NCBI GenBank assembly: GCA_964621445.1
Contig: CAZUNO010000012.1
Span: 1-64,000, forward strand
Direction of reading: 5' to 3'
Origin: Candidatus Hadarchaeota archaeon
GTDB lineage: Archaea; CAYQAE01; CAYVLA01
Length of the DNA: 64,000 nucleotides
Part shown: one piece after another, positions 42,046 to 44,770 of the stretch
Layout: each line of letters opens with the position of its first letter
Position numbering within the stretch: position 1 is the first letter of the stretch
Program-made: the position numbers and the translations under genes
Notes under the pieces: generated by a model
The model's input: the letters and a program-made list of their open reading frames with translations, nothing else
What the model was told of the DNA's origin: nothing
Databases searched by the model: none

Positions 42046-42073
42046 ACCAAAAATACTAGTCGCGGGTCCAAGA

Positions 42074-42265
42074 TGCCGTTCGCCCCGGTTTTTACCGGTG
42101 GAGCGGGGTTCGAACCCGCGACTTCCGTCTCAAATGAGACTCCGGATGTCCCAGTGACATGGCCGGTGAACCTATACTCGGTCTCCGTGCCCTAAGGTCT
42201 CCTATGAGTCCGGCGCGCTCTCCGGTCGAACCTTGAGGTTCGATAACCGGCTGCGCCATCCCGGC
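42074..42265 (-). tRNA. tRNA-Met(CAU), elongator, interrupted by four introns
   Basis: Exons 42265-42245, 42219-42203, 42147-42140, 42122-42100 and 42078-42074 join into a 74-nt cloverleaf: GCCGGGA/TCCCGGC acceptor, GCGC D-stem, CCGGA-CTCATAA-TCCGG anticodon arm, GCGGG-TTCGAAC-CCCGC T arm. TATA-like TTTATAT about 30 nt upstream. Confidence 0.88.
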
Positions 42266-42338
42266 ATAGGTTCTCTGACGCGATGCCGGAAAAACGCATA
42301 TAAATATATCTGCATATTCACCTTCCACGAGGTTCATT

Positions 42339-44695: not shown

Positions 44696-44770
44696 AGCGA
44701 GGTGGGGCAGCCAGGAGTGCCCGACGGGCTCATAACCCGTAGGTCAGTGGTTCAAATCCACTCCTCGCTA
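44696..44770 (+). tRNA. Initiator tRNA-Met(CAU), intronless
   Basis: AGCGAGG/CCTCGCT acceptor with A1-U72, G11-C24, three G-C pairs in the anticodon stem (GGG-CTCATAA-CCC), TTCAAAT T-loop; CCA not encoded. Confidence 0.96.

Follow-up and report, generated by a model that had tools for sequence, protein, structure and literature searches.

An elongator tRNA-Met gene with four predicted introns in a Candidatus Hadarchaeota genome

On the minus strand of a 64,000-nt contig stretch from a Candidatus Hadarchaeota archaeon (hereafter the window, meaning that whole stretch), a 192-nt locus very probably constitutes a functional elongator tRNA-Met gene, the sole one as far as found, whose five exons are separated by four introns that would be removed by splicing. 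Judged by its sequence, the locus is almost certainly a functional archaeal tRNA gene with bulge-helix-bulge (BHB) introns, that is, introns of the protein-spliced kind. The only detectable elongator tRNA-Met of this organism would need eight precise cuts and four ligations to become usable, which would make it a stringent natural test of the limits of protein-based tRNA splicing.

Layout and detection of the gene

Reading of the minus strand from 42265 to 42074 returned the same string and every coordinate that had been given in an initial annotation of this DNA. When the four inserts were cut out by coordinate (118 of 192 nt), the remaining exons joined to a 74-nt sequence that ARAGORN called as tRNA-Met(cat) and drew as a cloverleaf with every stem paired; U8, A14, G18G19, U33 and the T-loop are present in this spliced product, and CCA is not encoded in the gene (Table 1). 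The gene, its four inserts and their positions (D-loop, 37/38, 45/46 and 68/69) were therefore right as first described, both in exact coordinates and by the ARAGORN result for the spliced product. The gene for a class I lysyl-tRNA synthetase (LysRS) lies directly downstream. Used as a query against genome contigs, this LysRS matched named MAGs only at a distance (49-61% identity), and a protein atlas returned generic LysRS clusters for it.

Table 1. Coordinates of the elongator tRNA-Met(CAU) gene and its neighbouring signals within the window
Feature	Length and content	Position	Strand	Basis
Whole elongator tRNA-Met(CAU) gene	5 exons, 4 introns	42074..42265	minus	
Exon 1	21 nt; 5′ acceptor strand, U8, D stem 5′ strand, most of D-loop	42245..42265	minus	
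Intron 1	25 nt; D-loop	42220..42244	minus	
Exon 2	17 nt; D stem 3′ strand, position 26, anticodon stem 5′ strand, loop to A37 including CAU	42203..42219	minus	
Intron 2	55 nt; canonical 37/38 site	42148..42202	minus	
Exon 3	8 nt; positions 38-45	42140..42147	minus	
Intron 3	17 nt; 45/46 (variable loop)	42123..42139	minus	
Exon 4	23 nt; positions 46-68 (rest of variable loop, T arm, first three 3′ acceptor-strand bases)	42100..42122	minus	
Intron 4	21 nt; 68/69	42079..42099	minus	
Exon 5	5 nt; positions 69-72 and discriminator A73	42074..42078	minus	
Putative promoter	A/T-rich TATA-like box, 33-39 nt upstream of mature 5′ end	42298..42304	minus	inferred from sequence
Putative terminator	five-T run, starts 21 nt past discriminator, just before lysyl-tRNA synthetase gene	42049..42053	minus	inferred from sequence

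In its unspliced form the gene was missed by ARAGORN, with the intron option on or off, and by Infernal with the Rfam tRNA model RF00005, both at the gathering score in the window and at values up to E = 10 in the whole genome. The expectation that tRNA finders would overlook the gene thus held for ARAGORN and for Infernal with RF00005, and in such genomes an essential tRNA is missed by ARAGORN and the Rfam tRNA model. In a second sample of the same study, contigs spanning the whole gene show 0 differences. A further contig, which comes from another study and has a flank about 95% identical, extends across introns 4 and 3 into intron 2, and this strain variant carries a single change, located in the loop of the intron 4 hairpin. 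Because independent contigs from the second sample and from the other study carry the inserts, an assembly artefact was ruled out. No joined (intron-less) form was found among the DNA contigs of four runs, bearing in mind that contigs cannot show rare variants. Of seven sequencing runs in which this DNA was found, none is recorded as RNA.

Splice motifs, their conservation and folding of the precursor

All introns were described by one rule: a 4-bp central helix between two 3-nt bulges, with each cut placed behind the second bulge base. The central helix was evaluated by setting the four exon bases ending two before the 5′ cut against the four intron bases ending two before the 3′ cut, and the three numbers of each score count central, inner-helix and outer-helix pairs, in that order. 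Under this rule all four BHB motifs share one register. Intron 1 (4,7,0) has a relaxed HBh′ motif with a 7-bp inner hairpin and no outer helix; its central helix (CCGG/CCGG) uses D-loop bases 16-19, and its boundary can slide by 1 nt without altering the spliced product. Intron 2 (4,1,5) has a full hBHBh′ motif, with CUCA/UGGG as central helix and the anticodon stem as outer helix. Intron 4 (4,5,2) also has a full BHB, in which the central helix CGCU/GGCG is built on positions 63-66, the inner hairpin has 5 bp and the outer helix is a 2-bp pairing of 61-62 with 70-71. Intron 3 (3,3,0) has the weakest motif, a relaxed one with three base pairs and a G.A at the fourth pair, a 3-bp inner hairpin and no outer helix; its central helix is built on anticodon-stem bases 40-43, with both 3-nt bulges in register. 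This geometry agrees with the BHB descriptions of the initial annotation, down to the relaxed motif in the D-loop and the G.A mismatch of intron 3. When each intron was shuffled 20,000 times with its boundaries fixed, the fraction of shuffles reaching the observed motif quality was 5 × 10−5, 4.7 × 10−3, 8.2 × 10−3 and 0 for introns 1 to 4, respectively.

The same layout was recovered by a genome-wide de novo search that started from T-arm-like anchors and could jump over any BHB-like candidate, the previously proposed boundaries not being supplied; its best solution for the locus was exactly the same four-intron gene (loss 13). Across the genome, 35 of 503 anchors with an intact T arm gave any solution, and every solution with a loss of ≤17 (33 of 33) was called a tRNA by ARAGORN after in-silico splicing, including two (C45 and C19:335-433) whose intron structure is probably incompletely resolved. 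Two solutions with worse losses were rejected as chance chains of weak motifs, one of them overlapping a tRNA-Asn gene.

To place the motifs in an evolutionary frame, this genome was compared with three other genomes of its family (G001, G002 and G003, representing two further genera), whose flanking LysRS is only 61-64% identical to the one encoded here. In all three a tRNA gene lies at the same place upstream of the class I LysRS, with all four introns at identical positions. Exons differ at only two to three sites across the family, and intron hairpin loops vary freely. In the four-sequence alignment 96.6% of 148 BHB pair cells were standard and seven BHB pairs had changed on both sides; with partners slid by one to three columns as a control the paired fraction was only 27-45%, and 0 of 500 shuffles reached the observed values. 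Covariation is found mostly in intron 1, in a sample of four related sequences. The central helix of this intron takes the forms CCGG/CCGG, CUGG/CCGG and GCGG/CCGC, the clearest instance being a D-loop base and its intron partner that changed together from C-G to G-C, and five of the seven inner pairs show double changes. In the helix of intron 2 a U.G pair becomes U-A in G002. Introns 3 and 4 are nearly invariant across the four sequences; the G.A of intron 3 is identical in all of them, so that the alignment has no bearing on this pair. Intron 2 (55 nt) is far more conserved in sequence across the three genera than the loops of the other introns; RNAalifold returned a hairpin for it without covariation, and inspection by eye for a C/D-box guide saw no box C motif.

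The only genome of the sister family (G004) carries an orthologue with two introns (L049:585-700, minus strand), located at 30/31 (21 nt) and 37/38 (20 nt), and lacks introns in the D-loop and at 45/46 and 68/69. Possession of four introns is therefore specific to the family, with turnover of intron positions: three of the four introns of this gene are family-specific, and the 30/31 intron is confined to the sister family. Together, the four orthologues and the two-intron orthologue of the sister family provide a compact system in which to study intron gain and loss.

It is also conceivable, if quite improbable, that one or two of the inserts are retained in the mature tRNA, in which case the gene would have two or three introns. 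The likeliest candidate for retention is the 17-nt insert, as a long variable arm resembling that of class II tRNAs, and the D-loop insert could be a retained expansion. The poor motif of intron 3, with its G.A and missing outer helix, favors such a reading, as does the resemblance of the 17-nt hairpin to the stem-loop of a variable arm. Passages of a 2026 preprint (10.64898/2026.10.13.758758) cautiously use the term “intervening sequences” and describe the splicing of such inserts as mostly unverified. However, the 3′ part of the 17-nt insert can pair with anticodon-stem bases 40-42, with both bulges in register; neither property would be needed in a variable arm, and on this ground a class II variable arm was rejected. 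Inserts of the same type occur at the variable loop of four other class I tRNAs of the genome (tRNA-Asn, Lys(CUU), Ile(GAU) and Ile2), with a perfect 4-bp central helix in tRNA-Asn, and the D-loop insert shows the best covariation of all four. We know of no class II tRNA-Met.

Folding of the precursor with ViennaRNA accommodates the four putative introns unequally. The intron 1 motif is present in the minimum-free-energy (MFE) structure (P about 0.98), as is the intron 4 motif in the MFE structure of the full precursor, its probability dropping once the other introns are removed; the intron 3 motif is partly placed, and the intron 2 BHB is not predicted in any splicing state (P about 0.01). 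By base numbering, the helix of intron 3 takes bases 40-43 and the helices of intron 4 take 61-66 and 70-71, so that bases of these motifs are anticodon-stem and T-stem bases in the cloverleaf, and the intron 2 motif needs an intact anticodon stem. The motifs cannot all coexist with the cloverleaf, and the precursor would therefore need more than one conformation. An earlier suggestion of ordered splicing is upheld in part, in that the motifs of introns 3 and 4 conflict with cloverleaf stems; the folding results yield no splicing order.

Identity of the tRNA and splicing enzymes

Three genes with a CAU anticodon were found by our own census and ARAGORN. The four-intron gene has G1-C72, A73 and the anticodon stem CCGGA/UCCGG. 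Initiator tRNAs are marked by A1-U72 and by three G-C pairs at the bottom of the anticodon stem; the intron-less gene at 44696-44770 (plus strand) has A1-U72 and a GGG/CCC anticodon stem and is the initiator tRNA-Met. The third gene (contig 13, 80034-80128) matches tRNA-Ile(GAU) in its acceptor stem and carries an intron at the identical variable-loop position. As a separate observation, the initiator gene lies 2.4 kb from the four-intron elongator gene, and G001 has a tRNA match at the corresponding distance from its elongator orthologue.

Since the CAU anticodon is common to Ile2 and elongator Met, and TiaS is encoded in the genome, the four-intron gene could in principle be a tRNA-Ile2, with its CAU modified to agmatidine. 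We regard this as highly improbable, because the contig 13 gene, with its tRNA-Ile(GAU) acceptor stem and shared variable-loop intron site, appears from sequence to be the better Ile2 candidate, and because an elongator tRNA-Met would then be missing among the genes found. The identification as elongator tRNA-Met is thus supported by exclusion, the other two CAU genes being of initiator and Ile2 type with TiaS present. A search for another elongator tRNA-Met, by census and by BLAST for a second copy of the gene in its own genome, found none in this 96% complete draft of 89 contigs, from whose census a second tRNA-Met could escape. By the same exclusion, the four-intron gene is supported as the only elongator tRNA-Met found. 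Scarcely credible is a decaying pseudogene that has acquired insertions, with a working elongator tRNA-Met in an unassembled or undetected part: the draft state of the assembly and a tRNA census that was not exhaustive leave room for it, but exons are near-invariant and BHB helices compensated across three genera while intron loops drift, the ARAGORN cloverleaf is perfectly paired, BLAST returned no second copy and all four family genomes retain the locus.

For the elongator tRNA-Met with four introns, the following route to the mature molecule is proposed. Transcription, probably from the A/T-rich box upstream, would yield a precursor in which about 192 nt are flanked by leader and trailer, and each intron would pair with neighboring exon bases to form a BHB or relaxed BHB motif. 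The splicing endonuclease would cleave each 3-nt bulge behind its second base, at eight sites, and the five exons would be ligated by RtcB. Maturation to the 74-nt tRNA would then be completed by RNase P, a 3′ nuclease and the CCA-adding enzyme, CCA addition being proposed because no CCA is encoded.

Candidates for the cutting and joining steps are present. RtcB was found with a match of 609 bits, and the genome has two EndA genes. The first (contig 2, L001:1468-2589, minus strand) encodes a protein of 373 aa with two endonuclease units, which aligns over its whole length with two-unit α′2 enzymes. Its C-terminal unit matches the catalytic alpha subunit of Aeropyrum pernix (E = 3.9 × 10−43), in an alignment that covers the Crenarchaea-specific loop (CSL) region with its lysine and the Tyr/His/Lys context, and its N-terminal unit has a weak match to structural beta subunits. 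The second (contig 9, L002:835-2043, plus strand) encodes 402 aa from an internal Met; residues 20-402 align with 13-387 of the 395 residues of the ARMAN-2 epsilon2 enzyme (4fz2_A; E = 2.6 × 10−74, phmmer). It keeps the catalytic Tyr/His/Lys context and a Tyr-His loop with lysine, has two endonuclease domain matches plus N-terminal domains in Pfam, and is predicted to be an epsilon2-type enzyme, a three-unit alphaN-alpha-betaC polypeptide. Both EndA genes are present in all four family genomes (4 of 4), and the sister-family genome has one match. By eye, Tyr/His/Lys-like residues also appear to be retained in the N-terminal unit of the first EndA.

In passages of two papers (PMC5829648, PMC12397907), each of the two loop types is reported to enable an endonuclease to cut relaxed motifs, and part of another describes such cleavage by the ARMAN-2 epsilon2 enzyme (PMC3239211). 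Sequence comparison thus classifies the two proteins as a fused two-unit enzyme with a CSL-like loop and a full-length homologue of the epsilon2 type, and lends support to the initial annotation's proposal of a broad-specificity splicing endonuclease; the genome appears to encode one or more endonucleases suited to relaxed motifs together with the RtcB ligase. As of 2018, epsilon2 enzymes were known only from ARMAN-1 and ARMAN-2 according to passages of PMC5829648. A limited literature search for the two EndA types together met no statement either way in the portions of PMC5829648 and PMC3239211 concerned.

A more speculative and rather doubtful reading is that two competent EndAs divide the work, one cutting the strict motif (intron 2) and the other the relaxed introns 1, 3 and 4, that the second enzyme let the single-copy Met and Asn genes reach four introns outside Thermoproteales and Asgard archaea, and that an obligatory splicing order exists. 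Relaxed motifs would then form only in unfolded or alternative conformers, and the strict intron 2 motif would need the folded cloverleaf. The same set of orthologues suits the study of cloverleaf-conflicting motifs and of two co-resident endonucleases.

tRNA introns elsewhere in the genome and in other archaea

A survey of the other tRNAs for introns showed that 27 of 37 resolved genes are interrupted: 10 are intron-less, 16 have one intron, eight have two, one has three and two have four, giving 43 introns, or about 1.16 per gene. Besides tRNA-Met, four BHB introns are present in tRNA-Asn(GUU) (contig 13, 79833-80021, plus strand; L051:134-322), 12 nt upstream of the Ile2-type tRNA. These introns, located in the D-loop (27 nt), at 37/38 (28 nt), in the variable loop (31 nt) and in the 3′ strand of the T stem (30 nt), each have 4/4 central pairs. 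G001 and G002 retain this arrangement with compensatory changes, and no match was found in G003 or G004. The gene with three introns (21, 16 and 18 nt) is tRNA-Ser(GCU) (contig 2, 53322-53460, minus strand, within L052). The Rfam tRNA model missed tRNA-Asn, tRNA-Ser(GCU), tRNA-Gln(CUG) and one tRNA-Pro(CGG) on contig 2.

These counts come from a census of a draft genome, in which tRNA-His and tRNA-Cys were not found and tRNA-Trp was ambiguous. Introns inside T-loop positions 53-58, of which at least one exists, escape the search anchors. Six further Rfam matches were unresolved or loosely resolved under relaxed rules and, at 78-124 nt, have room for at most two or three introns; a maximum of four introns holds only for the genes found in this incomplete census.

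The view in the initial annotation that three introns is the maximum agrees with passages of two reviews, which give three per archaeal tRNA gene (PMC4033280, PMC8450103). It has been superseded by the 2026 preprint, parts of which report up to five intervening sequences in one Asgard gene (10.64898/2026.10.13.758758), and the novelty of the case was to that extent overstated. A further study of three Asgard genomes reports interruptions in 92-95% of their tRNA genes, with several per gene in over half of these (PMC11291895). The four-intron tRNA-Met is therefore not unique, given that tRNA-Asn likewise has four introns here and that Asgard genes have up to five. The present lineage, which appears to belong to neither Thermoproteota nor Asgardarchaeota, is one where four-intron tRNA genes had not been described, and it extends such tRNAs beyond Thermoproteales and Asgard archaea to a small, little-studied archaeal phylum, for which the genome set searched comprised only five species.

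The closest parallels are found in the Thermoproteales (Pyrobaculum, Thermofilum and Caldivirga), which share short BHB and relaxed introns at canonical and noncanonical sites, micro-exons, motifs that borrow exon bases, and a broad-specificity endonuclease whose inserted loop carries a lysine. The density of introns is similar, at about 1.16 per resolved gene here compared with a mean of 0.84 and a maximum of 1.54 in Thermoproteales, as given in passages of PMC8450103 and 10.64898/2026.10.13.758758. However, the portions of the reviews cited set three introns as the maximum there (PMC4033280, PMC8450103), against four here, and the alpha and beta subunits of Thermoproteales are separate, whereas fused two-unit and epsilon-type enzymes are found here. 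Asgard archaea resemble this genome in having many noncanonical introns, D-arm introns missed by annotation tools, genes with several introns, and intron positions that vary from one related lineage to another. They belong to another phylum, and 10 of 37 resolved genes are intron-less here, compared with a mean of 2.2 introns per gene, a much higher load, in Asgard archaea. ARMAN-2 (Candidatus Micrarchaeum acidiphilum) shares disrupted tRNA genes and an epsilon2 EndA that aligns over its whole length, the difference being that the epsilon2-type enzyme here occurs in a 3.2-Mb genome beside a second EndA.

Two minor observations concern the wider tRNA set. The 3′ bulge starts with A in 35 of the 43 introns, including 4 of 4 in the elongator tRNA-Met, and an A-first 3′ bulge may reflect a lineage-specific recognition preference. 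Two similar tRNA-like genes of 84-85 nt with anticodon GAA (contig 15, 2241-2324; contig 45, 5941-6025) share a long variable arm, G73 and the same 3′ flank; they are additional to the ordinary tRNA-Phe(GAA), and the class II isoacceptors are all accounted for.
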